In this document: piece by piece, positions 706-62,591 of the stretch
Position numbering within the stretch: position 1 is the first letter of the stretch
Layout: every line of letters starts with the position of its first letter
NCBI GenBank assembly: GCA_977017645.1
Contig: OZ360227.1
Coordinates: forward strand, 131,316,001-131,380,000
Source: Torpedo marmorata
Lineage: Eukaryota
DNA: 64,000 bases
Reading direction: 5' to 3'
Notes under the pieces: model-generated
Database searches by the model: none
Seen by the model: the letters and a program-made list of their open reading frames with translations, nothing else
Told to the model about the DNA's origin: nothing
Made by a program: the position numbers and the translations under genes

Positions 706-729
706 CTGTTGTGGATGGTGATACAGTTC
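706..729 (-). CDS. Microexon B, unit 1 (phase 1: RTVSPSTT)
   Basis: tctctttcacag|GAACTGTATCACCATCCACAACAG|gtatga; first codon completed by the C-ending exon A of unit 1. Confidence 0.65.
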
Positions 730-2160
730 CTGTGAAAGAGAATAATATTAAAGTTAAAATGGAACTATCAGATGCAGAATTTTGCATGTCGTTCAGATTG
801 CAACAAAGGCATGTCATTCTCAGATAATGGGGCTGTTTTGGTTATATGTCTCAGATCTTCAAAACCCAACTTAGAGAGAGGATGTTATCGACTGCAATTG
901 ACGTTGAGAGGCAGAACATTGTATTTCAATCACGAGTGATTGAAACTTCATGTCAGCAAACATTCTTGTGAAGCAGGTGAACACATTATTCACCATACAG
1001 CACAATCAATGCTGTGAAGAGTATGTTTTCAGGTCATGATACCTGCATTGAAAATCAACTGATGGAAGTTTTAGAATTGCTGCTCACTGTGGCAATGGAT
1101 TAGAAAACTGGTAGAACATATTCAATCATCTTTCACAGGATCCATTTGCATCTCACTGCAGCTCCGTTAAGAACCTGTCTGTAACCGTACAGATCCGTTC
1201 ATTGCTCTTACATTTCCATCTGGCAGGATAGATGTGCTGAGTTTAACCTTGGCTGCCGTAAATCAGTTTTACAAGATAAACATTGTCGAGGTGCTTACTT
1301 AAAAATTGACATTTAGGTACAAAGATTAACCCAATAGAGATCTCATTTCCTTCAAAAATGAGACCATTTAAGAGCATTTTACGTTCATATCTTTCTGCTC
1401 TTCAATGGATTTGCCTGTGCGAGTGCCTCTATATTGCTTCATAACATGGATAATCGCTGCTGAAACAACAGGCAACAAATGGATACCAACAAACATATGT
1501 TCATCAAACACAACTGAAAGGGGAATAATTATTAAATAATTCATTCCTATTGGTTGCGATATTGCTTCTTAACTGGAGAAATTACATTTCCCAGGGAAGT
1601 GCTGAAGAGACAGACAGTTTTGACCCTCGGGATATCATGAGCGTCACTTTGAGAAAATATGCACCAATGAAATTGATAGTGAAATCTGGCATGTTCCCTC
1701 TTGTTTCCTCTCCTTTTCAATTGATGGATAATGTGTGATGGCAATTCCGACTACTTGATGTACTTGAACATTGATGAACGGTGATTACTAACACTAATTT
1801 GCATCGAAATATTGAACTTAATCATGTTAGTTAGTGCTTTGAGATTACAGCACAATGTAGACTCATGTGGTTTTCAGCAAAAGAATATTCCCCATCTCTT
1901 GTAAAGTCAAAGCATTGAATATGATTGCAAAGATCATTTTCCTGTGTGCATGGAACATTACAGATAAAATTCACCATTTGTAGTTTGAGGAATCGTAAGC
2001 AGGCAACTAAATTTCTTGTAATCTCAGTGCCTGTCTTGTAATTGTGAAATTTCCAGAGAGGAATTTTTTAAAATACAAAGTTCAAGAAATACTTTTCTAA
2101 TACCAAAAGGCCTTATCATTGCATCATGGAACAATCACTGTGAAAATATACTGCTCTTAC

Positions 2161-2184
2161 GTGTTGGGCCTCCTGTAACTGCAC
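2161..2184 (-). CDS. Microexon A, unit 1 (GAVTGGPT)
   Basis: tctcttttacag|GTGCAGTTACAGGAGGCCCAACAC|gtaaga. Confidence 0.65.
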
Positions 2185-3202
2185 CTGTAAAAGAGAATAT
2201 TGTACAATTTAGCTCAAACATCAAATGTTCAACATAATCTAAATATGCAGATTGTATTTGATTATGGGCCACTTGTAATGCACTTCATTCTCATTAAAGT
2301 ATTGGCTAAAAAATTCCTTTATATTTAGTTAATAGCACGCAGTGCCTGGGCTTTATCCCAATGACCATGCTGGTTATTTAAGTTTACTCTCCATCATCCT
2401 GCCGGCCCTTCTCATACCCAAGTAAATAATTATTCCCCATGTGGCACAATCAGTGGGTTGAACAGTTGATAATCAGCTCTTTTATTCTGACATAAAAGCC
2501 AAATTATGTGAATGTAAGTTTCCAAGATACTGAAATTAAGGCTCTACAAGTGATTAACTCTCCATTGCGCCTAAAGAAGCGAATCACTGCTGTTGGAAAG
2601 ATGTTCTGATTCATGTTGAGGATGTCAAAAATCTCTGTCACTCAGTATCACTGTAACATTCCTTCTTTGGAATATGTATCCAAGTTCAAGCAAGTAGCTA
2701 TCAAGTTCACCTATCCCTTCATACATTCTAGAATTGGGTGATGTTCCTCAACAAGGTTTTTTGCATTTTGCCTGCCACATGTCAACTTCATACAACAGTT
2801 ATACGTTCCCAGGCCCTCCTTAACTGTTGTGGACAAGTAGTTGGTGAGAGAATAAGGTCAGTTTTACTATTTAACGGCAACAGAAAAGTAAATGCAATTT
2901 TGGACAGTTTTGTTCATTTTCCTAAACGTTTTAAAGATTTGTCAAGTGTGTTTTCGCAGAGTGACCCTGAAATTGAAAGAAGATTAGTATTGATATTTCA
3001 ACTGGAAATTAAGAGTATTCAATTTACTGCCCATTATTAACTGGAACAAGAAATTAAATTCAAGAATGAGCGCAAACAATCTTTATGTGTGTGAATTGAG
3101 CAATATGAACAAAGTTCCACACTTTTTGTCCAAAGAATTCATTTAAGTAAGTTCCGTCTAATCCCTCCAGAGCAATTAGAACAGTCATATATGTCGTCAT
3201 AC

Positions 3203-3226
3203 CTGTTGTGGATGGTGATACAGTTC
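3203..3226 (-). CDS. Microexon B, unit 2 (GTVSPSTT)
   Basis: cacag|GAACTGTATCACCATCCACAACAG|gtatga. Confidence 0.65.
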
Positions 3227-4656
3227 CTGTGAAAGAGAATAATATTAAAGTTAAAATGGAACTATCAGATGCAGAATTTTGCATGTCGTTCAGATTGCAA
3301 CAAAGGCATGTCATTCTCAGATAATGGGGCTGTTTTGGTTATATGTCTCAGATCTTCAAAACCCAACTTAGAGAGAGGATGTTATCGACTGCAATTGACG
3401 TTGAGAGGCAGAACATTGTATTTCAATCACGAGTGATTGAAACTTCATGTCAGCAAACATTCTTGTGAAGCAGGTGAACACATTATTCACCATACAGCAC
3501 AATCAATGCTGTGAAGAGTATGTTTTCAGGTCATGATACCTGCATTGAAAATCAACTGATGGAAGTTTTAGAATTGCTGCTCACTGTGGCAATGGATTAG
3601 AAAACTGGTAGAACATATTCAATCATCTTTCACAGGATCCATTTGCATCTCACTGCAGCTCCGTTAAGATCCTGTCTGTAACTGTACAGATCCGTTCATT
3701 GCTCTTACATTTCCATCTGGCAGGATAGATGTGCTGAGTTTAACCTTGGCTGCCGTAAATCAGTTTTACAAGATAAACATTGTCGAGTTGCTGACTTAAA
3801 AATTGACATTTAGGTACAAAGATTACCCAATAGAGATCTCATTTCCTTCAAATATGTGACCATTTAAGAGCATTTTACGTTCATATCTTTCTGCTCTTCA
3901 ATGGATTTGCCTGTGCGAGTGCCTCTATATTGCTTCATAACATGGATAATCGCTGCTGAAACAACAGGCAACAAATGGATACCAACAAACATATGTTCAT
4001 CAAACACAACTGAAAGGGGAATAATTATTAAATAATTCATTCCTATTGGTTGCGATATTGCTTCTTAACTGGAGAAATTACATTTCCCAGGGAAGTGCAG
4101 AATAGACAGACAGTGTTGACCCTCGGGATATCATGAGCGTCACTTTGAGAAAATATGCACCAATGAAATTGAAAGTGAAATCTGGCATTTTCCCTCTTGT
4201 TTCCTCTCCATTTCAAATGATGGATAATGTGTGATGGCAATTCCGACTACTTGCTGTACTTGAACATTGATGAACGTTGATTACTATCACTAATTTGCAT
4301 CGAAATATTGAACTTATTCATGTTGGTTAGTGCTTTGAGATTACAGCACAATGTAGACTCATGTGGTTTTCAGCAAAATAATATTCCCCATCTCTAGTAA
4401 AGTCAAAGCATTGAATATGATGGCAAAGATCATTTTCCTGTGTGCATGGAACATAACAGACAAAATTCACCGTTTGTAGTTTGAGGAATCCTAAGCGGGC
4501 AACTAACTTTCTTGTAATCTCAGTGCCTGTCTTGTAATGGTGAGATTTCCAGAGAGGAATTTTTTAAAATACGAAGTTCAAGAAATACTTTTCTAATACC
4601 AAAAGGCCTTATCATTGCATCATGGAACAATCACTGTGAAAATATACTGCTCTTAC

Positions 4657-4680
4657 CTGTTGGGCCTCCTGTAACTCCAC
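4657..4680 (-). CDS. Microexon A, unit 2 (GGVTGGPT)
   Basis: ttacag|GTGGAGTTACAGGAGGCCCAACAG|gtaaga. Confidence 0.65.
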
Positions 4681-5701
4681 CTGTAAAAGAGATTATTGTA
4701 CAATTTAGCTCAAACGTCAAATGTTCAACATAATCTAAATATGCAGATTGTATCTGATTATAGGCCACTTGTAAAGCACTTCATTCTCATTAAAGTATTG
4801 GCTAAAAAATTCCTTTATATTTAGTTAATAGCACGCAGTGCCTGGGCTTTATCACAATGACCATGCTGGTTATTTAAGTTTACTCTCCAACATCCTGCCG
4901 GCCCTTCTCATACCCAAGTAAATAATTATTCCCCATGTGGCACAATCAGTGGGTTGAACAGTTGATAATCAGCTCATTTATTCTGACATAAAAGCCAAAT
5001 TATGTGAATGTAAGTTTCCAAGATACTGAAATTAAGGCTCTACAAATGATTAACTCTCCATTGCGCCTAAAGAAGCTAATCACTGCTGTTGGAAAGATGT
5101 TCTGATTCATGTTGAGGATGTCAAAAATCTCTGTCACTCAGTATCACTGTAACATTCCTTCTTTGGAATATGTATCCAAGTTCAAGCAAGTAGCTATCAA
5201 GTTCACCTATCCCTTCATACATTCTAGAATTGGGTGATGTTCCTCAACAAGGTTTTTTGCATTTTGCCTGCCACATGTCCACTTCATACAAAAGTTATAC
5301 GTTCCCAGCCCCTCCTTAACTGTTGTGGACAAGCAGTTGGTGAGAGAATAAGGTCAGTTTTACTATTTAACGGCAACAGAAAAGTAAAGGCAATTTTGTA
5401 AAGTATTGTTCATTTTCCGAAACGTTTAAAGATTTGTCAAGTGTGTTTTTGTTGCGTGACCCTGAAATTGAAAGAAGATTAGTATTGATATTTCAACTGG
5501 AAATTAAGAGTATTCAATTTACTGCCCATTATAAACTGGAAAAAGGACTTAAATTCAAGAATGGGCGTAAACATTCTTTATGTGCCTGAATTGAGCAATA
5601 TGAACAAAGTTCCACACTTTTTGTCCAAAGAACACATGATATTAAATAAGTTCCGTCTATTCCCTCCAGAGTAATCAGAACAGTCATATATGTCGTCATA
5701 C

Positions 5702-5725
5702 CTGTTGTGGATGGTGATGCAGTTT
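5702..5725 (-). CDS. Microexon B, unit 3 (QTASPSTT)
   Basis: cacag|AAACTGCATCACCATCCACAACAG|gtatga; preceded by a C-ending exon A. Confidence 0.65.
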
Positions 5726-7145
5726 CTGTGAAAGAGAATAATATTAAAGTTAAAATGGAACTATCAGATGCAGAATTTTACATGTCGTTCAGTTTGCAAC
5801 AAAGGCATGTCATTCTCAGATAATGGGGCTGTTTTGGTTATGTGTCTCAGATCTTCAAAACCCAACTTAGAGATCGACTGCAATTGACATTGAGAGGCAG
5901 AACATTGTATTTCAATCACGAGTGATTGAAACTTCATGTCAGCAAATATTCTTGTGAAGCAGGTGAACATATAATTCACCATACAGCACAATCAATGCTG
6001 TGAAGAGTATATTTTCAGGTCATGATACCTGCATTGAAAATCAACTGATGGAAGTTTTAGAATTGCTGCTCACTGTGGCAATGGATTAGAAAACTGGTAG
6101 AACATATTCAATCATCTTTCACAGGATCCATTTGCATCTCACTGCAGCTCCGTTAAGAACCTGTCTGTAACCGTTCAGATCCGTTCATTGCTCTTACATT
6201 TCCATCTGGCAGGATAGATGTGCTAAGTTTAACCTTGGCTGCCGTAAATCAGTTTTACAAGATAAACATTGTCGAGGTGCTTACTTAAAAATTGACATTT
6301 TGGTACAAAGATTACCCAATAGAGATCTCATTTCCTTCAAATATGTGACCATTTAAGAGCATTTTACGTTCATATCTTTCTGCTCTTCAATGGATTTGCC
6401 TGTGCGAGTGCCTCTATATTGCTTCATAACATGGATAATCGCTGCTGAAACAACAGGCAACAAATGGATACCAACAAACATATGTTCATCAAACACAACT
6501 GAAAGGGGAATAATTATTAAATAATTCATTCCTATTGGTTGCGATATTGCTTCTTAACTGTAGAAATTACATTTCCCAGGGAAGTGCTGAAGAGACAGAC
6601 AGTTTTGACCCTCGGGATATCATGAGCGTCACTTTGAGAAAAGATGCACCAATGAAATTGAAAGTGAAATCTGGCATGTTCCCTCTTGTTTCCTCTCCTT
6701 TTCAATTGATGGATAATGTGTGATGGCAATTCCGACGACTTGCTGTACTTGAACATTGATGAACGGTGATTACTATCACTAATTTGCATCGAAATATTGA
6801 ACTTAATCATGTTAGTTAGTGCTTTGAGATTACAGCACAATGTAGACTCATGTGGTTTTCAGCAAAAGAATATTCCCCATCTCTTGTAAAGTCAAAGCAT
6901 TGAATATGATTGCAAAGATCATTTTCCTGTGTGCATGGAACATTACAGATAAAATTCACCATTTGTAGTTTGAGGAATCCTAAGCAGGCAACTAAATTTC
7001 TTGTAATCTCAGTGCCTGTCTTGTAATTGTGAAATTTCCAGAGAGGAATTTTTTAAAATGCGAAGTTCAAGAAATACTTTTCTAATACCAAAAGGCCTTA
7101 TCATTGCATAATGGAACAATCACTGTGAAAATATACTGCTCTTAC

Positions 7146-7169
7146 GTGTTGGGCCTCCTGTAACTGCAC
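7146..7169 (-). CDS. Microexon A, unit 3 (GAVTGGPT)
   Basis: ttacag|GTGCAGTTACAGGAGGCCCAACAC|gtaaga. Confidence 0.65.
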
Positions 7170-8190
7170 CTGTAAAAGAGATTATTGTACAATTTAGCTC
7201 AAACATCAAATGTTCAACATAATCTAAATATGCAGATTGTATCTGATTATGGGCCACTTGTAATGCACTTCATTCTCATTAAGGTATTGGCTAAAAAATT
7301 CCTTTATATTTAGTTAATAGCACGCAGTGCCTGGGCTTTATCTCAATGACCATGCTGGTTATTTAAGTTTACTCTCCATCATCCTGCCGGCCCTTCTCAT
7401 ACCCAAGTAAATAATTATTCCCCATGCGTCACAATCAGTGGGTTGAACAGTTGATAATCAGCTCTTTTATTCTGACATATAAGCCAAATTATGTGAATGT
7501 AAGTTTCCAAGATACTGAAATTAAGGCTCTACAAGTGATTAACTCTCCATTGCGCCTAAAGAAGCTAATCACTGCTGTTGGAAAGATGTTCTGATTCATG
7601 TTGAGGATGTCAAAAATCTCTGTCACTCAGTATCACTGTAACATTCCTTCTTTGGAATATGTATCCAAGTTCAAGCAAGTAGCTATCAAGTTCACCTATC
7701 CCTTCATACATTCTAGAATTGGGTGATGTTCCTCAACAAGGTTTTTTGAATTTTGCCTGCCACATGTCCACTTCATACAAAAGTTATACGTTCCCAGCCC
7801 CTCGTTAACTGTTGTGGACAAGCAGTTGGTGATTGAATAAGGTCAGTTTTACTATTTAACGGCAACAGAAAAGTAAAGGCAATTTTGTAAAGTATTGTTC
7901 ATTTTCCGAAATGTTTAAAGATTTGTCAAGTGTGTTTTCGTTGCGTGACCCTGAAATTGAAAGAAGATTAGTATTGATATTTCAACTGGAAATTAAGAGT
8001 ATTCAATTTACTGCCCATTATAAACTGGAAAAAGGACTTAAATTCAAGAATGGGCGCAAACATTCTTTATGTGCCTGAATTGAGCAATATGAACAAAGTT
8101 CCACACTTTTTGTCCAAAGAACACATGATATTAAATAAGTTCCGTCTATTCCCTCCAGAGTAATCAGAACAGTCATATATGTCGTCATAC

Positions 8191-8214
8191 CTGTTGTGGA
8201 TGGTGATGCAGTTT
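8191..8214 (-). CDS. Microexon B, unit 4 (ETASPSTT)
   Basis: Consensus exon B with intact cag and gtatga sites. Confidence 0.65.
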
Positions 8215-9632
8215 CTGTGAAAGAGAATAATATTAAAGTTAAAATGGAACTATCAGATGCAGAATTTTGCATGTCGTTCAGATTGCAACAAAGGCATGTC
8301 ATTCTCAGATAATGGGGCTGTTTTGGTTATATGTCTCAGATCTTCAAAACCCAACTTAGAGATCGACTGCAATTGACGTTGAGAGGCAGAACATTGTATT
8401 TCAATCACGAGTGATTGAAACTTCATGTCAGCAAACATTCTTGTGAAGCAGGTGAACACATTATTCACCATACAGCACAATCAATGCTGTGAAGAGTATG
8501 TTTTCAGGTCATGATACCTGCATTGAAAATCAACTGATGGAAGTTTTAGAATTGCTGCTCACTGTGGCAATGGATTAGAAAACTGGTAGAACATATTCAA
8601 TCATCTTTCACAGGATCCATTTGCATCTCACTGCAGCTCCGTTAAGAACCTGTCTGTAACCGTACAGATCCGTTCATTGCTCTTACATTTCCATCTGGCA
8701 GGATAGATGTGCTGAGTTTAACCTTGGCTGCCGTAAATCAGTTTTACAAGATAAACATTGTCGAGTTGCTTACTTAAAAATTGACATTTAGGTACAATGA
8801 TTACCCAATAGATCTCATTTCCTTCAAATATGTGACCATTTAAGAGCATTTTACGTTCATATCTTTCTGCTCTTCAATGGATTTGCCTGTGCGAGTTCCT
8901 CTATATTGCTTCATAACATGGATAATCGCTGCTGAAACAACAGGCAACAAATGGATACCAACAAACATATGTTCATCAAACACAACTGAAAGGGGAATAA
9001 TTATTAAATAATTCATTCCTATTGGTTGCGATATTGCTTCTTTACTGTAGAAATTACATTTCCCAGGGAAGTGCTGAAGAGACAGACAGTTTTCACCCTC
9101 GGGATATCATGAGCGTTACTTTGAGAAAATATGCACCAATGAAATTGAAAGTGAAATCTGGCATGTTCCCTCTTGTTTCCTCTCCTTTTCAATTGATGGA
9201 TAATGTGTGATGGCAATTCCGACTACTTGCTGTACTTGAACATTGATGAACGGTGATTACTATCACTAATTTGCATCGAAATATTGAACTTAATCATGTT
9301 AGTTAGTGCTTTGAGATTACAGCACAATGTAGACTCATGTGATTTTCAGCAAAAGAATATTCCCCATCTCTTGTAAAGTCAAAGCATTGAATATGATGGC
9401 AAAGATCATTTTCCTGTGTGCATGGAACATTACAGATAAAATTCACCATTTGTAGTTTGAGGAATCCTAAGCAGGCAACTAAATTTCTTGTAATCTCAGT
9501 GCCTGTCTTGTCATTGTGAAATTACCAGAGAGGAATTTTTTAAAATACAAAGTTCAAGAAATACTTTTCTAATACCAAAAGGCCTTATCATTGCATAATG
9601 GAACAATCACTGTGAAAATATACTGCTCTTAC

Positions 9633-9656
9633 CTGTTGGGCCTCCTGTAACTGCAC
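9633..9656 (-). CDS. Microexon A, unit 4 (GAVTGGPT)
   Basis: Consensus exon A with intact cag and gtaaga sites. Confidence 0.65.
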
Positions 9657-10678
9657 CTGTAAAAGAGATTATTGTACAATTTAGCTCAAACATCAAATGT
9701 TCAACATAATCTAAATATGCAGATTGTATCTGATTATGGGCCACTTGTAATGCACTTCATTCTCATTAAGGTATTGGCTAAAAAATTCCTTTATATTTAG
9801 TTAATAGCACGCAGTGCCTGGGCTTTATCTCAATGACCATGCTGGTTATTTAAGTTTACTCTCCATCATCCTGCCGGCCCTTCTCATACCCAAGTAAATA
9901 ATTATTCCCCATGTGGCACAATCAGTGGGTTGAACAGTTGATAATCAGCTCTTTTATTCTGACATAAAAGCCAAATTATGTGAATGTAAGTTTCCAAGAT
10001 ACTGAAATTAAGGCTCTACAAGTGATTAACTCTCCATTGCGCCTAAAGAAGCTAATCACTGCTGTTGGAAAGATGTTCTGATTCATGTTGAGGATGTCAA
10101 AAATCTCTGTCACTCAGTATCACTGTAACATTCCTTCTTTGAAATATGTATCCAAGTTCAAGCAAGTAGCTATCAAGTTCACCTATCCCTTCATACATTC
10201 TAGAATTGGGTGATGTTCCTCAACAAGGTTTTTTGCATTTTGCCTGCCACATGTCAACTTCATACAACAGTTATACGTTCCCAAGCCCTCCTTAACTGTT
10301 GTGGACAAGTAGTGGGTGAGAGAATAAGGTCAGTTTTACTATTTAACGGCAACAGAAAAGTAAATGCAATTTTGGACAGTTTTGTTCATTTTCCTAAACG
10401 TTTTAAAGATTTGTCAAGTGTGTTTTCGCAGAGTGACCCTGAAATTGAAAGAAGATTAGTATTGATATTTCAACTGAAAATTAAGAGTATTCAATGTACT
10501 TCCCATTATTAACTGGAACAAGAAATTAAATTCAAGAATGAGCGCAAACAATCTTTATGTGTGTGAATTGAGCAATATGAACAAAGTTCCACACTTTTTG
10601 TCCAAAGGATTCATGATATTAAATAAGTTCCGTCTATTCCCTCCAGAGCAATCAGAACAGTCATATATGTCGTCATAC

Positions 10679-10702
10679 CTGTTGTGGATGGTGATGCAGT
10701 TT
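10679..10702 (-). CDS. Microexon B, unit 5 (QTASPSTT)
   Basis: Consensus exon B; preceded by a C-ending exon A. Confidence 0.65.
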
Positions 10703-12133
10703 CTGTGAAAGAGAATAATATTAAAGTTAAAATGGAACTATCAGATGCAGAATTTTGCATGTCGTTCAGATTGCAACAAAGGCATGTCATTCTCAGATAA
10801 TGGGGCTGTTTTTGTTATGTGTCTCAGATCTTCAAAACCCAACTTAGAGAAAGGTTGTTATCGACTGCAATTGACGGTGAGAGGCAGAACATTGCATTTC
10901 AATCACGAGTGATTGAAACTTCATGTCAGCAAACATTCTTGTGAAGCAGGTGAACACATTATTCACCATACAGCACAATCAATGCTGTGAAGAGTATGTT
11001 TTCAGGTCATGATACCTGCATTGAAAATCAACTGATGGAAGTTTTAGAATTGCTGTTCACTGTGACAATGGATTAGAAAACTGGTAGAACATATTCAATC
11101 ATCTTTCACAGGATCCATTTGCATCTCACTGCAGCTCCGTTAAGAACCTGTCCTGTAACCGTACAGATCCGTTCATTGCTCTTACATTTCCATCTGGCAG
11201 GATAGATGTGCTGAGTTTAAGCTTGGCTGTCGTAAATCAGTTTTACAAGATAAACATTGTCGAGTTGCTTACTTAAAAATTGACATTTAGGTACAAAGAT
11301 TACCCAATAGAGATCTCAATTCCTTTAAAAATGTGACTATTTAAGAGCATTTTATGTTCATATCTTTCTGCTCTTCAATGGATTTGCCTGTGCGAGTGCC
11401 TCTATATTGCTTCATAACATGGATAATCGCTGCTGAAACAACAGGCAACAAATGGATACCAACAAACATATGTTCATCAAACACAACTGAAAGGGGAATA
11501 ATTATTAAATAATTCATTCCTATTGGTTGCGATATTGCTTCTTAACTGTAGAAATTACATTTCCCAGGGAAGTGCTGAAGAGACAGACAGTTTTGACCCT
11601 TGGGATATCATGAGCGTCACTTTGAGAAAATATGCACCAATGAAATTGAAAGTGAAATCTGGCATGTTCCCTCTTGTTTCCTCTCCATTTCAATTGATGG
11701 ATAATGTGTGATGGCAATTCCGACTACTTGCTGTACTTGAACATTGATGAACGGTGATTACTATCACTAATTTGCATCGAAATATTGAACTTAATCATGT
11801 TAGTTAGTGCTTTGAGATTACAGCACAATGTAGACTCATGTGGTTTTCAGCAAAAGAATATTCCCCATCTCTAGTAAAGTCAAAGCATTGAATATGATTG
11901 CAAAGATCATTTTCCTGTGTGCATGGAACATTACAGATAAAATTCACCATTTGTAGTTTGAGGAATCCTAAGCAGGCAACTAAATTTCTTGTAATCTCAG
12001 TGCCTGTCTTGTAATTGTGAAATTACCAGAGAGGAATTTTTTAAAATACAAAGTTCAAGAAATACTTTTCTAACACCAAAAGGCCTTATTATTGCATAAT
12101 GGAACAATCACTGTGAAAATATACTGCTCTTAC

Positions 12134-12157
12134 GTGTTGGGCCTCCTGTAACTGCAC
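12134..12157 (-). CDS. Microexon A, unit 5 (GAVTGGPT)
   Basis: Exon A variant ending CAC|gtaaga. Confidence 0.65.
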
Positions 12158-51613: not shown

Positions 51614-51637
51614 CTGTTGGGGATGGTGATGCAGTTT
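51614..51637 (-). CDS. Microexon B, unit 15 (ETASPSPT)
   Basis: cacag|AAACTGCATCACCATCCCCAACAG|gtatga; lies between the L1 nest and the Gypsy element. Confidence 0.65.
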
Positions 51638-51945
51638 CTGTGAAAGAGAATAATATTAAAGTTAAAATGGAACTATCAGATGCAGAATTTTGCATGTCGT
51701 TCAGATTGCAACAAAGGCATGTCATTCTCACATAATGGGGCTGTTTTGGTAATATGTCTCAGATCTTCAAAACCCAACTTAGAGAAAGGTTGTTATCGAC
51801 TGCAATTGACGGTGAGAGGCAGAACATTGCATTTCAATCACGAGTGATTGAAACTTCATGTCAGCAAACATTCTTGTGAAGCAGGTGAACACATTATTCA
51901 CCATACAGCACAATCAATGCTGTGAAGAGTATGTTTTCAGTTCAT

Positions 51946-52195
51946 TGATAGGCCTATCAATAAGAACTCAAATACTATGAGTGTGAACGAACCATAGGCT
52001 TTTATTACCTTAAAACAGTGCAGTAGTTTCCTGCAGATCTGACCCGGACTGAGGGAGTGGCCGTGGCACAGTGGCCTTCATTCAGGTGAAGAAAGGGGAG
52101 GGATTACCTGGACACCCAAGGGAGGGGAGGGAGTAGACATCGGGACAGCCTGCAGTACATACCTATACCACACTACTAAACAGTGGTTTACCACA
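51946..52195 (-). repeat. Gypsy 3' LTR
   Basis: Direct repeat of 56157-56406; about 7 mismatches by eye. Confidence 0.95.
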
Positions 52196-52210
52196 TTCAC
52201 CCCTCCTTTT
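52196..52210 (-). other. Polypurine tract
   Basis: Minus strand AAAAGGAGGGGTGAA directly before the 3' LTR TGTGG. Confidence 0.85.
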
Positions 52211-52300
52211 TAAAAAAGAGTCCAGCGGGGTGACGCGACCACTCTAACTATGTTACAGAAAAGAAAACCATACAGAATTATATACAAGCAATTTCACAGG

Positions 52301-55300
52301 TCAAGGCGATCCGGCGGTCGAATTTTCCGCTGTGACCTGCGTAGTGGCGGGGCGGGTTGTGGTGATGGGGGGATGGTAGGGTTGTCTGTGCAGTCGCCTC
52401 CTGCCTGGCTTCTTGAAGTGTCTGTGGTCCCGGCGAGGGGGCTGGCTCTGACGCACTGGGTGGGGAATTAGGGGGGGTTGCAGCAGGTGGTCTTGCCCGT
52501 CGGGATGTTCTTCCGGTGCCTCAGCGGGCGCCAGATCCCGAATCGAGACAGTGTCCTCTCGCCCATCCGGGAAGACCACGTATGCATATTGTGGGTTGGC
52601 GTGCGCCAACTGCACCCTCTGGACTGCCGGCTCATATTTGCTGCTCCGAAGGTGATTGCGGAGCAGCACTGGTCCCGGGGACGTCAGCCAGGCAGGTAGG
52701 GCAGTTCCGGTGGTCGACTTCCTGGGGAAGGAAAAAAATCGTTCATGAGGGGTTGCGTTGGTGGAAGTGCACAGCAGGGACCGGATAGAATGGAGGGCTT
52801 CGGGGAGGACATCCTGCCAGCGGGAGACCGGCCATCCTTTGGACTTGAGAGCCAGGAGCGCCGCCTTCCAGACAGTCGCGTTCTCCCTTTCCACCTGTCC
52901 ATTTCCCCGGGGGTTGTATCCGGTGGTCCTGCTAGTGGCGATGCCTCGGGCCTGCAGGTACCGTCGCAGCTCCTCACTCATGAAAGCTGCTCCCCGGTCG
53001 CTATGGATATAGTTTGGGAAACCAAACAGCGTGAATACCTGGTGGAGAGCTTTTATGGTAGAGGTAGCCGACGTGTCGGGGCAGGGGATGGCGAAGGGGA
53101 ACCGCGAGTACTCATCAATGATATTCAAGAAGTACACGTTGCGGTTCATGGAGGGGAGGGGGCCCTTGAAGTCAATACTGAGACGTTCAAAAGGGCGGGT
53201 GGCTTTGATCAGCTGTGCCTTGTCGGGGCGGTAGAACTGGGGTTTGCACTCCGCGCAAACCCGGCAACTGCTGATCATTGTCCTGACCTCTTCCAGGGAG
53301 TATGGCAGGTTCTGTGACTTCACAAAGTGAAAGAGCCTGGTAATTCCTGGGTGGGCGTGTAATCGGTCGATCTGCGCGCTGGCGCATGATCCCCGGGATA
53401 GAGCATTGGAGGGCTCATTGAGCTTCCCGGACCGGTAAAGGATGTCGTAATTGTAGGTGGAGAGTTCTATTCTCCACCTCATGATCTTATCATTTTTGAT
53501 CTTACCCCGCTGCTGGTTGTTGAACATAAATGCCACCGAGCGTTGGTCGGTCAGCAGGGTAAAATGCTTGCCGGCGAGATAGTGCTTCCAGTGCCTGATT
53601 GCTTCCACTATGGCCTGGGCTTCCTTCTCCACCGCGGAGTGCCGAATTTCGGGGCCTTGAAGGGTCCGTGAGAAAAACGCCACCGGCCTTCCCGCCTGGT
53701 TGAGGGTAGCAGCAAGCGCGAAGTCCGATGCGTCGCTCTCTACCTGAAAAGGTGTCTCTTCATCCACCGCGTGCATTGTTGCTCGCGCAATGTCCCCTTT
53801 TATAAGGTCAAACGCCTCACGTGCCTCCGAAGCAAGGGGAAATGCGGTGGATTTCACCAGGGGTCGGGCCTTATCCGCATAATTTGGAACCCACTGTGCA
53901 TAATATGAGAAGAACCCGAGGCATCGTTTGAGTGCTTTGGGTGTGGAGGGAAGTGGAAGTTCCAGCAGGGGCCGCATGCGGTCGGGGTCGGGTCCAATCA
54001 CCCCGTTCTCTACCACATACCCCAAAATAGCGAGGCGGGTGGTACCGAACACACATTTTTCTTTATTATATGTCAGGTTTAGTGCTTTGGCCGCCTGCAG
54101 GAACCTCCGGAGGTTGTTGTCGTGGTCCTGACGATCCAGACCACAGATGGTAATATCATCCAGGTACGGGAAAGTGGCCTTAAGTTTATAATGGTCCACA
54201 ATCCTGTCCATCTCCCGTTGGAATACCGATACCCCATTCGTGACCCCGAAAGGAACACAAAGGAAATGGAACAGCCTACCATCTGCCTCGAACGCAGTGT
54301 ACGGCTGGTCCTCCTTTCGGATAGGGAGCTGGTGATATGCGGATTTCAGGTCTATGGTGGAAAAGAACCTATATTGGGCTATCTGATTCACTATATCCGC
54401 TATTCGTGGTAGCGGATATGCGTCCAACTGTGTGAATCGATTAATAGTCTGACTGTAATCCACCACCATCCTACTCTTGGCCCCTTTTACTACGACTACC
54501 TGTGCCCTCCAGGGACTATTACTCCTCTCAATAATCCCCTCCTGTAATAATCTCTGCACCTCCGTCTTGATAAACGCCCTGTCGCCCGAACTGTATCGCC
54601 TGCTCTTGGTTGCCACAGGCTTGCAGTCAGGGGTTAGGTTGGCGAATAGCGACGGGGGCGAGATCTTAAGAGTGGAGAGGCCACAGGTAGTCTGGGGCGT
54701 GTTACTCAGGAACTGGTGGTTTGCTACAGTGATCGCAGGGTGGGGACCGTCATACCGCATCGTGACACTCCGTAAGTGGCTCTGAAAATCAAGGCCTAAT
54801 AACACAGGTGCACACAAACGATTCATAATAAACAAAGAAAATTGGCGATACTCAGTCCCTTGTACCACAATATTTGCCACACAAGCCCCCCGGATGTCTG
54901 TTGTGTGTGCCCCAGACGCCATGGCCACCCTCTGGCTTACCGGTATGGTAGTGAGGCCACAGCGCTGGACAGTGTCCGGGTGGATGAAGCTCTCCGTACT
55001 GCCCGTATCGAAGAGACAGGTGGTTTTGTGCCCCTCCACCAGGATGTCCATCATGGATCTCGATAGCTGGTGGGGAACACTCTGGTCAAGAGTGACTGAT
55101 GCCAGGGTTGGTATGTAGTCATCTTGATCTGCCGTTGTTAAAGATGGCCGCTCCCGTGGATTGCACGTGTCGCTGCTGCTCGCGCTGCAAGATGGCGGTG
55201 GTAGTAATGCCGGAAGTAGAGACGCAGGCCTACTAGATGGCGGCGCCGGAAGTGCCAGCATCAAAGATGGCCGCCTCCACTCTTCGCACGAGGTCTTCGC

Positions 55301-56131
55301 CGGAAGTGCCAGCAGGTAAGATGGCCACTCCCGCAGCTCGCATGCGGAGCTGCTCGGACCCGGGCGCGACTTGGAGCGGCAGGCCTTCGCGTAATGGCCT
55401 TTCTTGCCGCAGCTAGAACAAGTCGCATCGCGGGCCGGGCAGCGTTTCCTCGGGTGTTTATCGAGCCCGCAGAAGTAACACTTCTCGGGCTCGCGGTTAA
55501 CGGCAGCGGCGGTGAGGATCGCGGTAGCGATCGGATCGCTACAAACGGCGGCGGCAGTCAGTTCGTTGGCAGGGCTGGGGGATGGGGCTGACCACGCTGC
55601 GGGCTGGGGGTCGCGCACCTGCATGGCGTCGGAGTTCCGCAGCGCGGACGCCAGCGTGTGGACCATCGAGACCGCCCCACGAAAGTCCAGGTCGGCGTGC
55701 TCCAGCAGCCTCTGGCGCACGTATACCGACCTGATCCCCATGATGAAAGCGTCTCTCTCCAACACTCCAACGTGTTCCTCAGCCGTTAGAGCTTTACAGT
55801 CGCAAGCTCGTGCTAGCGACTGTATGTCCCTGACATACTCTACGGTCGACTCCCAGGCTCGCTGCTTCCGCGAAAAGAGTCTATACCTCGCGTTGACTGG
55901 AGTCAGGTAGATTCTTTTCAGTGCATCCATCGCCTCCGTATAGGTTCTACAGTCTCTCACCGTTGAGAATACCCGAGAGCTCACCCTGGACACGAGGACC
56001 CTTTGTTGCTGCTCCTCGCTTTCAGCTTCGATGGTGAGCATAAAGGACTCTAGCCAGTATTCAAATGAGTTACTGGCATCAGGAGCTAGATGATCGATGT
56101 CCAGACGGTCCGGTCTTAGAGCCCCTTCCAT
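52301..56131 (-). CDS. Gypsy Gag-Pol polyprotein, 1276 aa
   Basis: Tandem Cys-His knuckles CYFCGLDKHPRKRC and CSSCGKKGHYAKAC; protease LFDTGS; RT IDLKSAYHQ and YLDD; RNase H ESDASD; integrase HPG..CRVC, IDEYSRF, IHSDRG, GQVERE. Confidence 0.95.
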   Translation of the reverse strand: MEGALRPDRLDIDHLAPDASNSFEYWLESFMLTIEAESEEQQQRVLVSRVSSRVFSTVRDCRTYTEAMDALKRIYLTPVNARYRLFSRKQRAWESTVEYVRDIQSLARACDCKALTAEEHVGVLERDAFIMGIRSVYVRQRLLEHADLDFRGAVSMVHTLASALRNSDAMQVRDPQPAAWSAPSPSPANELTAAAVCSDPIATAILTAAAVNREPEKCYFCGLDKHPRKRCPARDATCSSCGKKGHYAKACRSKSRPGPSSSACELREWPSYLLALPAKTSCEEWRRPSLMLALPAPPSSRPASLLPALLPPPSCSASSSDTCNPRERPSLTTADQDDYIPTLASVTLDQSVPHQLSRSMMDILVEGHKTTCLFDTGSTESFIHPDTVQRCGLTTIPVSQRVAMASGAHTTDIRGACVANIVVQGTEYRQFSLFIMNRLCAPVLLGLDFQSHLRSVTMRYDGPHPAITVANHQFLSNTPQTTCGLSTLKISPPSLFANLTPDCKPVATKSRRYSSGDRAFIKTEVQRLLQEGIIERSNSPWRAQVVVVKGAKSRMVVDYSQTINRFTQLDAYPLPRIADIVNQIAQYRFFSTIDLKSAYHQLPIRKEDQPYTAFEADGRLFHFLCVPFGVTNGVSVFQREMDRIVDHYKLKATFPYLDDITICGLDRQDHDNNLRRFLQAAKALNLTYNKEKCVFGTTRLAILGYVVENGVIGPDPDRMRPLLELPLPSTPKALKRCLGFFSYYAQWVPNYADKARPLVKSTAFPLASEAREAFDLIKGDIARATMHAVDEETPFQVESDASDFALAATLNQAGRPVAFFSRTLQGPEIRHSAVEKEAQAIVEAIRHWKHYLAGKHFTLLTDQRSVAFMFNNQQRGKIKNDKIMRWRIELSTYNYDILYRSGKLNEPSNALSRGSCASAQIDRLHAHPGITRLFHFVKSQNLPYSLEEVRTMISSCRVCAECKPQFYRPDKAQLIKATRPFERLSIDFKGPLPSMNRNVYFLNIIDEYSRFPFAIPCPDTSATSTIKALHQVFTLFGFPNYIHSDRGAAFMSEELRRYLQARGIATSRTTGYNPRGNGQVERENATVWKAALLALKSKGWPVSRWQDVLPEALHSIRSLLCTSTNATPHERFFSFPRKSTTGTALPAWLTSPGPVLLRNHLRSSKYEPAVQRVQLAHANPQYAYVVFPDGREDTVSIRDLAPAEAPEEHPDGQDHLLQPPLIPHPVRQSQPPRRDHRHFKKPGRRRLHRQPYHPPITTTRPATTQVTAENSTAGSP

Positions 56132-56156
56132 CAGATTTTTATTAAGGTAATAAAAT

Positions 56157-56406
56157 TGATAGGCCTATCAATAAGAACTCAAAGACTATGAGTGTGAACG
56201 AACCATAGGCTTTTATTACCTTAAAACAGTGCAGTAGTTTCCTGCAGATCTGACCCGGACTGAGGGAGTGGCCGTGGCACAGTGGACTTTATTCAGGTGA
56301 GAAAAGGGGAGGGATTACCTGGACACCCAAGGGAGGGGAGGGAGTAGATATCGGGACATCCTGCAGTACATACCTATACCACACTACTAAACAGTGGTTT
56401 ACCACA
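56157..56406 (-). repeat. Gypsy 5' LTR
   Basis: Minus strand TGTGGTAAACC...TGATAGGCCTATCA; contains AATAAA; lies 25 nt upstream of the gag ATG. Confidence 0.95.
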
Positions 56407-57533
56407 GTCATGATACCTGCATTGAAAATCAACTGATGGAAGTTTTAGAATTGCTGCTCACTGTGGCAATGGATTAGAAAACTGGTAGAACATATTCAAT
56501 CATCTTTCACGGGATCCATTTGCATCTCACTGCAGCTCCGTTAAGAACCTGTCTGTAACCGTACAGATCCGTTCATTGCTCTTACATTTCCATCTGGCAG
56601 GATAGATGTGCTGAGTTTAAGCTTGGCTGCCGTAAATCAGTTTTACAAGATAAACATTGTCGAGTTGTTTACTTAAAAATTGACATTTAGGTCCAAAGAT
56701 TACACAATAGAGATCACATTTCCTTCAAAAATGAGACCATTTAAGAGCATTTTATGTTCATATCTTTCTGCTCTTCAATGGATTTGCCTGTGCGAGTGCT
56801 TCTATATTGCTTAATAATATAGAGAATCGCTGCTCAAACACCAGGCAACAAATGGATACCAACAAACATATGTTCATCAAACACAACTGAAAGGGGAATA
56901 ATTATTAAATAATTCATTCCTATTGGTTGCGATATTGCTTCTTAACTGTAGAAATTACATTTCCCAGGGAAGTGCTGAAGAGACAGACAGTGTTGACCCT
57001 CGGGATATCATGAGCGTCACTTTGAGAAAATATGCACCAATGAAATTGAAAGTGAAATCTGGCATGTTCCCTCTTGTTTCCTCTCCTTTTCAAATGATGG
57101 ATAATGTGTGATGGCAATTCCGACTACTTGCTGTACTTGAACATTGATGAACGTTGATTACTATCACTAATTTGCATCGAAATATTGAACTTATTCATGT
57201 TGGTTAGTGCTTTGAGATTACAGCACAATGTAGACTCATGTGGTTTTCAGCAAAAGAATATTCCCCATCTCTTGTAAAGTCAAAGCATTGAATATGATGG
57301 CAAAGATCATTTTCCTGTGTGCATGGAACATAACAGACAAAATTCACCGTTTGTAGTTTGAGGAATCCTAAGCAGGCAACTAACTTTCTTGTAATCTCAG
57401 TGCCTGTCTTGTAATGGTGAGATTTCCAGAGAGGAATTTTTTAAAATACGAAGTTCAAGAAATACTTTTCTAATACCAAAAGGCCTTATCATTGCATCAT
57501 GGAACAATCACTGTGAAAATATACTGCTCTTAC

Positions 57534-57557
57534 CTGTTGGGCCTCCTGTAACTGCAC
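57534..57557 (-). CDS. Microexon A, unit 15 (GAVTGGPT)
   Basis: Consensus exon A, splice sites intact. Confidence 0.65.
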
Positions 57558-58574
57558 CTGTAAAAGAGATTATTGTACAATTTAGCTCAAACGTCAAATG
57601 TTCAACATAATCTAAATATGCAGATTGTATCTGATTATGGGCCACTTGTAATGCACTTCATTCTCATTAAAGTATTGGCTAAAAAATTCCTTTATATTTA
57701 GTTAATAGTACACAGTGCCTGGGCTTTATCTCAATGACCATTCTGGTTATTTAAGTTTACTCTCCATCATCCTGCCGGCCCTTCTCATACCCAAGTAAAT
57801 AATTATTCCCCATGTGGCACAATCAGTGGGTTGAACAGTTGATAATCAGCTCTTTTATTCTGACATAAAAGCCAAATTATGTGAATGTATGTTTCCAAGA
57901 TACTGAAATTAAGGCTCTACAAGTGATTAACTCTCCATTGCGCCTAAAGAAGCTAATCACTGCTGTTGGAAAGATGTTCTGATTCATGTTGAGAATGTCA
58001 AAAATCTCTGTCACTCAGTATCACTGTAACATTCCTTCTTTAGAATATGTATCCAAGTTCAAGCAAGTAGCTATTAAGTTCACCTATCCCTTCATACATT
58101 CTAGAATTGGGTGATGTTCCTCAACAAGGTTTTTTGCATTTTGCCTGCCACATGTCTACTTCATACAACAGTTATACGTTCCCAAGCCCTCCTTAACTGT
58201 TGTGGACAAGTAGTTGGTGAGAGCATAAGGTCAGTTTTACTATTTAACGGCAACAGAAAAGTAAATGCAATTTTGGACAGTTTTGTTCATTTTCCTAAAC
58301 GTTTAAAGATTTGTCAAGTGTGTTTTCGTAGCGTGACCCTGAAATTGAAAGAAGATTAGTATTGATATTTCAACTGGAAATTAAGAGTATTCAATTTACT
58401 GCCCATTATTAACTGGAACAAGAACTTAAATTCAAGAATGAGCGCAAACAATCTTTATGTGTGTGAATTGAGCAATATGAACAAAGTTCCACACTTTTTG
58501 TCCAAAGTATTCATTTAAATAAGTTCCGTCTATTCCCTCCAGAGCAATCAGAACAGTCATATATGTCGTCATAC

Positions 58575-58598
58575 CTGTTGGGGATGGTGATGCAGTTT
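58575..58598 (-). CDS. Microexon B, unit 16 (ETASPSPT)
   Basis: Exon B variant ..TCCCCAACAG|gtatga. Confidence 0.65.
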
Positions 58599-59965
58599 CT
58601 GTGAAAGAGAATAATATTAAAGTTAAAATGGAACTATCAGATGCAGAATTTTGCATGTCGTTCAGATTTCAACAAAGGCATGTCATTCTCAGATAATGGG
58701 GCTGTTTTGGTTATATGTCTCAGATCTTCAAAACCCAACTTAGAGAGAGGATGTTATCGACTGCAATTGACGTTGAGAGGCAGAACATTGTATTTCAATC
58801 ACGAGTGATTGAAACTTCATGTCAGCAAACATTCTTGTGAAGCAGGTGAACACATTATTCACCATACAGCACAATCAATGCTGTGAAGAGTATGTTTTCA
58901 GGTCATGATACCTGCATTGAAAATCAACTGATGGAAGTTTTAGAATTGCTGCTCACTGTGGCAATGGATTAGAAAACTGGTAGAACATATTCAATCATCT
59001 TTCACAGGATCCATTTGCATCTCACTGCAGCTCCGTTAAGAACCTGTCTGTAACCGTACAGATCCGTTCATTGCTCTTACATTTCCATCTGGCAGGATAG
59101 ATGTGCTGAGTTTAACCTTGGCTGCCGTAAATCAGTTTTACAAGATAAACATTGTCGAGTTGCTGACTTAAAAATTGACATTTAGGTCCAAAGATTACCC
59201 AATAGAGATCTCATTTCCTTCAAATATGTGACCATTTAAGAGCATTTTACGTTCATATCTTTCTGCTCTTCAATGGATTTGCCTGTGCGAGTGCCTCTAT
59301 ATTGCTTCATAACATGGATAATCGCTGCTCAAACAACAGGCAACAAATGGATACCAACAAACATATGTTCATCAAACACAACTGAAAGGGGAATAATTAT
59401 TAAACAATTCATTCCTATTGGTTGCGATATTGCTTCTTAACTGGAGAAATTACATTTCCCAGGGAAGTGCTGAAGAGACAGACAGTTTTGACCCTCGGGA
59501 TATCATGAGCGTCACTTTGAGAAAATATGCACCAATGAAATTGAAAGTGAAATCTGGCATGTTCCCTCTTGTTTCCTCTCCTTTTCAAATGATGGATAAT
59601 GTGTGATGGCAATTCCGACTACTTGCTGTACTTGAACATTGATGAACGTTGATTACTATCACTAATTTGCATCGAAATATTGAACTTATTCATGTTGGTT
59701 AGTGCTTTGAGATTACAGCACAATGTAGACTCATGTGGTTTTCAGCAAAATAATATTCCCCATCTCATGTAAAGTCAAAGCATTGAATATGATGGCAAAG
59801 ATCATTTTCCTGTGTGCATGGAACATAACAGACAAAATTCACCGTTTGTAGTTTGAGGAATCCTAAGCAGGCAACTAACTTTCTTGTAATCTCAGTGCCT
59901 GTCTTGTAATGGTGAGATTTCCAGAGAGGAATTTTTTAAAATACGAAGTTCAAGAAATACTTTTC

Positions 59966-62255
59966 ATTTTGTGAAACAAATTTAAACTCCGTGTCTGATA
60001 AATTTGTAATATGGGAAACTTTGAAAGTATATTTAAGAGGTCAAATCATAAGTTACTCTTCAAAAATTAAAAAGGATTATATGAGAGAAATAGACCAATT
60101 AGAAAAAGAAATAACGATTCTGGAAAAGGATTTACAAAAGATGAGCTCTGTAGATAAACGTAGACAACTAACCAATAAAAAACTTCAATATAATATGTTA
60201 CAGACTTATAGAATGGAGAAGACTATTATAAGAACTAAGCAAAGATATTATGAGTTAGGAGAACGCTCACATAAAGTATTAGCATGGCAGTTAAAAACAG
60301 AACAGGCATCAAGAACAATTAATGCAGTTAAAACTGAGGCTGATGTTATTAGTTATAAGCCTCAAATAATAAACAATTCTTTTAAAAAATTCCATTCTGA
60401 TTTATATAAATCAGAATCTCTGCAAGATGATAGTAAAATTGATGGATATCTATCACAGATATATTTACCAAGTTTAAACACGCAAGAGCAATTAGAATTA
60501 AGTACCCAGTTTACGCAGAGGGAAGTGAAAGATGCAATGAGTTCATTACAAAGTAATAAAGCACCGGGGGAGGATGGTTTTCCACCAGAGTTTTATAAAG
60601 AATTTAAGGAATTATTAATTCCTATTTTCATGGATATGTTACAACAAGCATCTGTGACGCATACACTTCCAGAAACTTTTTCTACTGCAATAATTACAGT
60701 AATACCAAAAAAAGATAGAGACCCTTTGAAACCTTCATCGTATAGGCCAATTTCATTAATGAATGCAGATTATAAGATTGTGGCGAAAATCTTGGCAAAT
60801 AGGATAACAAATTTTTTGCCAAAATTAGTAAACATGGATCAAACAGGCTTTGTAAAAAATAGACAAGCAGCTGACAATGTAGCAAGGTTACTTAGTATTA
60901 TTCATTTAGCTCAAAAAAGGAAAGTACTAAGTGTAGCAGTGGCACTAGATGCAGAGAAAGCTTTTGATAGATTGGAGTGGGACTTTTTGTTTAAAGTATT
61001 GGAGAAATTTGGATTTGGGAAGACTTAAATAGATTGAATTAAAGCATTATATAATGCTCCAAAAGCTAAAGTAGTGACTAATGGACAAATATCAACTTTG
61101 TTTTGCCTGACAAGTTCTAGCCGACAGGGATGCCCGTTGTCACCAGCTTTATTTATATTAGCTATAGAACCGTTAGCAGAGGCAATTAGAAGTGATTTGG
61201 CAATTAAGGGATTTACAGTTGGTCAAAAGCAACATAAAATTAGTTTATTTGCGGATGATGTTTTAATATACTTGACGGAGCCTGAGACTTATTTGCAAAG
61301 ATTACATTTTAAATTGGAGGAATATGGGAAAGGCTCTGGTTATAAGATAAACTGGGATAAAAGTGAAATTATGCCCCTTACAGAGGGAGATTATACTTTA
61401 TGTAAAAGAAGTACCCAGTTTAAATGGCCACATAAGGGAAATAAATATCTTGGGGTTCGAACAGATAATAAATTAAAAAATTTATATAAATTGAATTATA
61501 TACCATTGCTTAAAAAAATTAAAGAAGACTTGGAGAAATGGATTAATTTATCCATCACACTGATTGGAAGAGTTAACTGTATTAAAATGAATATATTTCC
61601 AAGGATACAGTACTTGTATCAAACTATACCTATTTTATTACCACAGGCTTTTTTTCAGGATTTAAATAAACAAGTGCGAACATTTCTTTGGAAAGGTAAA
61701 ATGTCAAGAGTTTCTATGGAACGTCTAACATGGAAATATGAACTGGGGGGTCTACAACTCCCTAATTTTAAGAATTATTATCGAGCGGCACAAAGGAGAT
61801 TTGTTACTTCTTTTTTTGAAAGTGAAGGAAGACCTGCATGGGTTGGAATAGAGCTTGGTGAAATAGGAGAAAGGGCACCAGAAGAATTTATATACAAATG
61901 GAACTCAAAATTATTGATAGGTGCTAAAGAAACGCCGTTGTTAAAACATTTGATTAATGCTTGGAACAAGATTAATGATGAGATAGGGATGAAAGGAATC
62001 ATATCACCCAAAATGTCTTTGATACAGAATAATCTTATACCATTTACAAAAGATAATCAATTTTTAAATATATGGTCACAGAAAGGAATATAGAAGATAG
62101 AAGATTGTTATGAAGGGAACCAGCTGATGTCGTTTGTACAATTACGGAATAAATATGGAATACCCAATAACACTCTCTTTTGTTATTTTCAATTAAGAGG
62201 TTATTTAAGAGAAAAACTAGGTCCAGATATGTTGTTACAAGATTGTAGTGAGGTA
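59966..62255 (+). mobile_element. L1 ORF2 internal fragment of a third subfamily; no TSD, no tail, replaces ~0.8 kb of the array
   Basis: WETLKVYLRG..YRPISLMNADYK..LDAEKAFD..RQGCPLSP..LFADD with in-frame stops. The left flank stops at unit position ~2097 (acttttc) and the right flank resumes at unit position ~397 (gcaattttgg). Confidence 0.93.
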
Positions 62256-62567
62256 GCAATTTTGGACAGTTTTGTTCATTTTCCTAAACGTTTAAAGATT
62301 TGTCAAGTGTGTTTTCGTAGTGTGATCCCGAAATTGAAAGAAGATTAGTATTGATATTTCAACTGGAAATTAAGAGTATTCAATTTACTGCCCATTATTA
62401 ACTGGAACAAGGACTTAAATTCAAGAATGAGCGCAAACATTCTTTATGTGCGTGAATTGAGCAATATGAACAAAGTTCCACACTTTTTGTCCAAAGAATA
62501 CATGATATTAAATAAGTTCCGTCTATTCCCTCCAGAGCAATCAGAACAGTCATATATGTCGTCATAC

Positions 62568-62591
62568 CTGTTGTGGATGGTGATGCAGTTT
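62568..62591 (-). CDS. Microexon B, unit 17 (xTASPSTT)
   Basis: Consensus exon B, intact within the most diverged unit. Confidence 0.65.

Follow-up and report, generated by a model that had tools for sequence, protein, structure and literature searches.

In chicken Muc13, at least 12 repeats of 20 amino acids (aa) from the domain in which proline, threonine and serine abound (PTS) are encoded one per near-identical exon, with expressed sequence tag support, and zebrafish Muc13 is similar according to an unpublished analysis by the same authors (Lang, Hansson and Samuelsson, 2006; PMC1552070). That paper proposes the multi-exon PTS domain as a possible ancestral vertebrate design in which splicing might control length, and describes Muc13 as adjoining HEG with the same polarity. 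The PTS, EGF, SEA and membrane domains are likewise present in human MUC13 and other mammalian mucins, and MUC13 has its HEG neighbour there too, but the PTS sequence of these mucins lies in one large exon and their length varies through a variable number of tandem repeats inside that exon (PMC1552070). The window analysed here is a 64,000-nucleotide (nt) stretch of the genome of Torpedo marmorata (GenBank assembly GCA_977017645.1, contig OZ360227.1, positions 131,316,001 to 131,380,000 of the forward strand), much of which is occupied by a tandem repeat with a unit of 2495 bp. We consider it highly probable that this array forms the central coding part of MUC13 in a cartilaginous fish, with up to 50 microexons building the stalk of the protein.

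The Torpedo locus shares with chicken and zebrafish Muc13 the gene itself, the HEG neighbour with the same polarity and, at the genomic level, one PTS repeat per near-identical exon. The published account of the chicken gene gives 20-aa repeats and one exon type, and contains an assembly gap, whereas here 8-aa microexons of two types alternate in a 2.5-kb cassette, the cassette introns are homogenised as well (97–100%) and 50 intact copies extend over 133 kb. The design is not without precedent, as chicken and zebrafish Muc13 are already multi-exon in that account; novelty appears to lie in exons as small as 24 nt, in a cassette that holds two of them and whose introns are homogenised, in the count of 50, and in the sign that units of 7–8 residues are general in sharks and rays. 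A likeness of design, with no homology implied, is found in the SmPoMuc genes of Schistosoma mansoni, in which a 27-bp exon lies in ∼1-kb genomic repeats of up to 20 copies with introns >93% identical, under concerted evolution and with variation in splicing (PMC2576457, PMC4015677). Both systems place a microexon in kilobase-scale repeats under concerted evolution, but SmPoMuc is a multigene family of a flatworm parasite with one exon per repeat and trans-splicing proposed, whereas the array is a single locus in a vertebrate membrane mucin with MUC13 domains and two exons per cassette.

No description of such an array in an elasmobranch was found in the literature searched, subscription papers and a 2007 follow-up by the authors of the chicken study being outside its scope. 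Muc13 occurs in the accessible part of PMC4948705 in the reference list only, and pig MUC13 has been connected with susceptibility to an enteric bacterium (PMC3440394).

Results

Organization of the array

Coordinates follow the numbering of the window and are continued outside it, the contig position being 131316000 plus the coordinate; the part of the 6.2-Gb genome that was read takes in 200 kb above the window and 80 kb below, together with a separate stretch of 401 bases. Tandem Repeats Finder is blind to the 2.5-kb period, and copies of the two segments, A and B, were counted by a fuzzy search on both strands. Between 706 and 62591 on the minus strand there are 15 A and 17 B segments, each of 24 nt bounded by AG and GT, with no indels and zero to two substitutions per copy; the same search of the window found no copy of either on the plus strand. 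The count made in the initial annotation was therefore reproduced, and its intron sizes of ∼1431 and ∼1018 nt agree with the lengths measured here: 1418–1431 nt for the A-to-B introns (14 measured) and 1017–1022 nt for 12 of the 14 B-to-A introns, the remaining two being 2608 nt because a long interspersed element (LINE) fragment lies inside them.

The A segments (span 2161..57557, minus strand) read GAVTGGPT in phase 1 and have their first bases at 57557, 37793, 33708, 31213, 28717, 26222, 23726, 21232, 18732, 14650, 12157, 9656, 7169, 4680 and 2184. The B segments (span 706..62591, minus strand) read ETASPSTT in the same phase and begin at 62591, 58598, 51637, 36340, 32254, 29759, 27263, 24768, 22274, 19778, 17282, 13198, 10702, 8214, 5725, 3226 and 729. 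In the reference cassette of 2495 bp (26223..28717, minus strand), exon A (28717-28694) is followed by an intron of 1430 nt, exon B (27263-27240) and an intron of 1017 nt, so that 48 of the 2495 bp (∼2%) would be coding. The final G of A is replaced by C in three of the window's 15 copies and in 8 of the 21 across the whole array; the C-ending copies are concentrated in its downstream half (window 2161-12157, extended to -10319). Three of the four B copies that begin with G come after a C-ending A, and the junction codon is then Gln, Arg or Gly rather than Glu.

The homogeneous array covers the 77 kb between 62591 and -14266. It holds 21 A and 23 B copies, six of each lying below base 1, and all 44 copies retain AG and GT. 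The alternation of A and B is broken at the upstream end, where A exons are absent near 64.8 kb and 60 kb. Of the diverged copies, six (first bases 87869, 80644, -23979, -25397, -29768 and -45044) keep AG, GT and the length of 24 nt, while those at 79579 and 112563 have lost the acceptor; the edge copies are 14–33% diverged. With the diverged copies included, 50 microexons with intact splice sites are spread over 133 kb, 18 of them outside the window (2 above, 16 below). A scan with a profile built from seven copies gave no plus-strand site above 10 bits, and its one other minus-strand match, at 155053 (11 bits), was dropped as it has no GT.

One unit was also scanned with approximate splice matrices, with the scores of A and B themselves as thresholds, alongside 2000 dinucleotide-resampled units. 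In the real unit two segments qualify, both of them on the minus strand; the plus strand has none. None of the resampled units held two; a single 24-nt segment occurred in three, and a single segment of 15–45 nt, in multiples of 3, in 16. As the copies in the window are near-identical, they amount to one observation and not 32.

The host gene

The A-B repeat is open in each of its three frames; the window alone therefore cannot fix the phase, which was taken from the host gene. A signal-peptide exon of 79 nt (first base +114975, minus strand), 51 kb above the window, ends in phase 1, and an EGF-1 exon of 117 nt (first base -46127, minus strand) starts in phase 1. Both flanking exons impose on the microexons the phase-1 reading that had been put forward initially, and minus-strand host exons, on which the initial annotation had made its interpretation depend, lie on either side of the array, with the signal peptide above and EGF, SEA and cytoplasmic-tail exons below. 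The exons from EGF-1 through the tail are found 46–93 kb below the window, all on the minus strand: SEA exon 1 (first base -46717, 107 nt), SEA exon 2 (-50120, 56 nt), SEA exon 3 (-65722, 104 nt), EGF-2 (-69549, 135 nt), EGF-3 (-75385, 118 nt), a juxtamembrane exon (-79392, 38 nt) and the cytoplasmic-tail exon at about -92525 to -92686 (L033:226-65), which is identical to the sawfish tail at 20 of 42 residues (E 5e-08). SEA exon 3 contains a GSII motif, which we take to mark SEA cleavage. The gene is at least 207 kb long, and the whole window (1..64000, minus strand) lies in its interior, the remaining exons being outside.

The signal exon is identical to sawfish mucin-13-like at 17 of 26 residues. 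Two other candidates, at +184,155 and +154,341, were set aside, since the ortholog is matched by +114,975 alone, and a hydrophobic segment at +230,379 that resembled a signal exon was judged by eye to be the antisense of a retrotransposon open reading frame. The predicted model from signal to juxtamembrane exon has 58 exons, all GT-AG, and 1954 nt encoding 651 aa over 194 kb without a stop. If all 50 microexons were used the stalk would measure 400 aa, with 45% S+T and 57% S/T/P, and comparison with orthologs suggests a full protein of about 750–780 aa once the membrane span and tail are added. The proposal of a PTS stalk of a membrane glycoprotein is supported, the glycoprotein being MUC13, whereas the description ‘very large’ is not.

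Exon by exon, the EGF exons matched EGF-type models in Pfam, and the first SEA exon matched PF01390 at E 0.0025, below the cut-off as a 35-aa piece; the third SEA exon gave no Pfam match. The sawfish ortholog passes the SEA cut-off, and over 219 aa the model aligns to the sawfish protein with 59% identity. For the EGF-1 frame, a protein search by word index yielded no candidate, and an Atlas search with the first SEA exon gave weak leads only (unnamed clusters at 0.89–0.91 and one SEA cluster at 0.89). The first SEA exon (L029:3177-3283) was compared with a ∼95% identical contig of run X3, from a related organism: 17 of the 24 differences in the contig were listed, and six of the seven listed within the exon change a residue, which hints at fast evolution and no more. 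The intron that separates the last microexon from EGF-1 contains a repeat (L029:4141-4898) that is missing from the X3 contig, in which the pieces on either side are present; the repeat is probably a recent insertion.

Orthologous proteins and neighbouring genes

Searched against 1.84 billion representatives, the EGF-3 exon gave four matches. The two single full-length matches, at 79% in Pristis pectinata and 58% in Leucoraja erinacea, are both named ‘mucin-13-like’; the other two were a protein of 4303 aa (top row, 23 stretches at 39%) and one of 929 aa (53% over 17 residues). The sawfish protein gave at least six matches in the genome, all at the MUC13 locus and on both sides of the array. 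The skate protein gave five, of which four fall at this locus, the weakest local one being the tail exon, and one is a weak, stop-containing match on another contig; no second MUC13-like locus was present among the scored candidates of these protein searches. All nine shark and ray MUC13-like proteins compared are 36–59% identical to the modelled EGF-SEA-EGF part, with the sawfish at 59%, other rays and the skate at 52–55% and sharks at 36–49%, against 27% for a skate HEG; by these values the animal is probably a ray.

The upstream neighbour is HEG, on the same strand; the best eight matches of its tail exon are from sharks and rays, at 83–86%. On the other side, ∼130 kb past the MUC13 tail exon and on the same strand, lies an integrin-beta gene (contig 131.067-131.093 Mb). 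The expected other neighbour of MUC13 is ITGB5. These results establish the anatomy of the gene, its frame, its orthology and its neighbours.

Evidence bearing on splicing

The inclusion of the 24-mers in the transcript is inferred, and they are very probably real microexons of a known gene. Scans between the signal and EGF-1 exons gave no other stalk exon, save a weak S/T-rich candidate of 48–51 nt at -21491 that was left out of the model; as the gene needs a stalk, the 24-mers are expected to supply it. The ‘mucin-13-like’ database models of sawfish, stingray, devil ray, horn shark and zebra shark (among those compared were XP_051884989.1, XP_067890600.1, XP_059503344.1 and XP_072903621.1) have the same domain order and isoforms that differ by whole units, with other repeat sequences in the stalk. 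The initial expectation that such repeats go unannotated does not hold for other sharks and rays, whose database models already carry them.

The stalk period is 8 or 16 aa in five of seven orthologs (16 in sawfish, horn shark and Mobula birostris, 8 in zebra shark and M. hypostoma) and 15 or 22 aa in the two stingrays, Hemitrygon and Hypanus respectively. Measured against the longest isoform of the horn shark, 11 of the 12 differences in length are multiples of 8, the twelfth isoform differing in the tail; all three non-zero differences in zebra shark are likewise multiples of 8. The stingray differences (7, 8, 15, 22, 29, 30 and 38) can be composed as sums of 7 and 8, and stingray stalks use 7+8-aa units. 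The number of database isoforms could be raised by mis-mapping between exons of identical sequence. The terminal unit of the sawfish stalk resembles the last microexon. The Mobula birostris model has non-repeat, intron-like residues amid its 8-aa units, which suggests a mis-annotated microexon array.

Splice signals are variable in 1 of 52 columns among the 17 uninterrupted units, compared with 203 of 2395 intron columns (8.5%). Seven diverged paralogs were located by the similarity of their introns; AG, GT and the length of 24 nt are retained in five, where ∼2.3 would be expected (P ∼0.04, with divergences set roughly by hand). A search of sequencing runs with L029:2900-5100 returned three runs, none listed as RNA; the two guessed to be RNA cover the intronic repeat (L029:4136-4916) and not the exons, and have no bearing on expression.

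Variation between units and transposon insertions

The 17 uninterrupted units differ pairwise by 0.0–3.3%, introns included. Units 31213 and 26222 are 0.0% apart and units 33708 and 28717 are 0.2% apart, which indicates a two-unit duplication, and most unit pairs are 1–3% apart, with their own variants and insertions. The interruptions of the array are retrotransposons, whose family labels here are those that we presume. A LINE fragment, which we take to be L1/Tx1-like (15544..17114, plus strand), sits within one of the B-to-A introns and has a target duplication of 16 bp, and a second copy of it (34602..36172, plus strand) occupies the equal cassette position 19 kb away; it was carried there by duplication of a block, which recurs at 98.9% identity over 9 kb with 0.5–3.1% difference per unit. 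A 12.8-kb retrotransposon nest (38326..51111) sits in one B-to-A intron with a target duplication of ∼15 bp, and within it (42600-50845) two LINE copies that are ∼75% identical stand head to tail. A presumably Gypsy-like long terminal repeat (LTR) retrotransposon in an A-to-B intron (51944..56410, minus strand) has 256-bp terminal repeats that are 96.9% identical and an open frame of 1287 aa; the identity of its repeats could date the cassette, as a minimum age. A further LINE fragment (59965..62256, plus strand) replaces ∼800 bp of cassette including one A exon. Sparing of exons by transposons was considered as evidence and rejected, since exons and splice signals make up ∼4% of the unit and an A exon was in fact lost to one of the insertions.

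Two side observations were made above the window. An inverted pair of one repeat element (extended 156260-157924) carries two near-identical 287-aa frames on opposite strands with overlapping starts. The S/T-rich region of HEG (extended 254785-260610, minus strand) is a single open frame of 1942 aa with a 21-aa tandem repeat, ∼35–40 copies by eye. The stalk design of this neighbouring, related gene, one giant exon, is the opposite of that of MUC13.

Discussion

Several observations weigh against the array as the stalk-coding middle of MUC13. The A copies that end in C have a weakened donor. The exon bodies are variable in 5 of 48 columns and are no better conserved than the introns, so that of the conservation contrast on which the initial annotation had staked its reading only the part concerning splice columns is seen across the array; the exon substitutions observed change residues in phase 1. 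Among diverged paralogs, exon identity exceeds that of both flanks in 3 of 10 comparisons (A-type 0 of 6, B-type 3 of 4, one of them narrowly), two of seven copies have lost the acceptor, and the donor G of the last microexon is altered in the X3 contig. The orthologs are predicted protein models, with exon coordinates and read support unseen; their stalks, at 51–311 aa, fall below 400 aa, and of the isoform differences in stingrays none of three (Hypanus) and one of nine (Hemitrygon) are multiples of 8. The transmembrane exon was not placed by protein searches of the genome, and should lie in the 13 kb, unread here, between the juxtamembrane and tail exons; a genome search with the sawfish membrane-and-tail segment gave no match, but this is uninformative, as even the known 38-nt exon was missed. 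A low-complexity stalk would be expected to tolerate such sequence changes, and the counter-points therefore limit the number of copies used more than the reality of the design.

These same observations feed the alternative that we take most seriously, although we think it rather unlikely, and which limits our explanation while being compatible with it. The host would be MUC13, but most of the 44 homogeneous copies would be passengers, expansion having outrun splicing, with few microexons in the mRNA and a stalk far below 400 aa. The lack of a purifying signal on the exon bodies, the weakened donors in 8 of 21 A copies, the short ortholog stalks and the relatives' database isoforms without many of the units would all be accommodated; the retention of AG and GT in every homogeneous copy, the single variable column among 52 and the Hemitrygon and Mobula models, with 258 and 311 aa of stalk, argue that more copies are used. 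To go further and regard the repeat as an intronic satellite inside MUC13, its 24-mers being chance splice-like sequences that are never used, would draw on the equal variability of exon and intron columns and on the non-independence of the copies, but we hold this to be very improbable. Two such segments occurred in none of the 2000 resampled units, 48 bp of each unit can be placed in frame with the host exons on either side, and the last unit of the sawfish stalk is like the last microexon; with the 24-mers gone, moreover, the weak candidate at -21491 would be all the stalk that the scans leave, while the orthologs have 8-aa-periodic stalks there. The two near-identical units, 0.0% apart, might suggest that the copy number is partly an artefact of assembly, through over-expanded or collapsed units, but most unit pairs differ by 1–3% with distinct variants and insertions. 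This is improbable, and would touch the count and not the design.

A decaying pseudogene with a freely drifting array is as improbable as the unused satellite: dead copies, many transposon insertions and residue-changing substitutions are present, but 651 codons over 194 kb are free of stops, GT-AG is found at all 58 exons, and the scored candidates include no second MUC13-like locus. The probability is close to negligible that the segments are phase-0 exons of another gene, encoding the Gln/His-rich repeat VQLQEAQQ KLHHHPQQ. That frame is open across A and B, and of the five changes that the diverged copy at 87869 carries, four are silent in it, but first-position changes among Thr, Ala, Pro and Ser codons would appear silent in the shifted frame; the flanking host exons impose phase 1, the copy at -45044 has a stop in phase 0, and the ortholog stalks are Thr-rich.

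For the array as part of MUC13, the following mechanism is proposed. Transcription of the minus strand would start with the signal exon at +114,975 and proceed across as many as 50 exons that are 24 nt long and symmetric in phase 1, the Thr/Ser/Pro-rich stalk of up to 400 aa gaining 8 residues from each of them, before running into the EGF, SEA, EGF, EGF, membrane and tail exons, the predicted product being a type I membrane mucin. From what is known of the family, the stalk would be O-glycosylated and part of the epithelial glycocalyx. Because every exon is of 24 nt with phase 1-1, the frame is preserved whichever copy is added, deleted or skipped, and tolerance of copy loss is seen in the A exons missing upstream and in the dead copies. 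The homogeneous units, the multi-unit duplications and the diverged edges fit unequal crossing-over with homogenisation, by which the array may have grown from one or several cassettes. Stalk length would be set by the number of cassettes, and probably varied further by exon skipping.

A satellite-like kilobase tandem repeat can, on this evidence, turn out to be a gene's coding core, a point to be heeded when large genomes are repeat-masked and annotated. The multi-exon Muc13 design is extended to the cartilaginous fishes, where there are signs that units of 7–8 residues are general, and this supports the 2006 proposal of an ancestral state. The design reaches the scale of microexons, with 24-nt exons and ∼2% of the cassette coding, and the idea, also of 2006, that splicing sets mucin length within an individual becomes easy to test. 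More tentatively, and with doubt outweighing confidence, sharks and rays may adjust how tall their epithelial MUC13 stands and how much sugar it bears in steps of 8 residues, by skipping dozens of interchangeable 24-nt exons in varying combinations, with the weakened A donors as built-in skip points and with elasmobranchs as a whole retaining the design even as each lineage replaces the repeat sequence. If so, each animal would hold a ladder of stalk lengths, differing by tissue or state of infection, on top of inherited variation in cassette number, and the array would be a vertebrate counterpart of the polymorphic-mucin device of the parasite.

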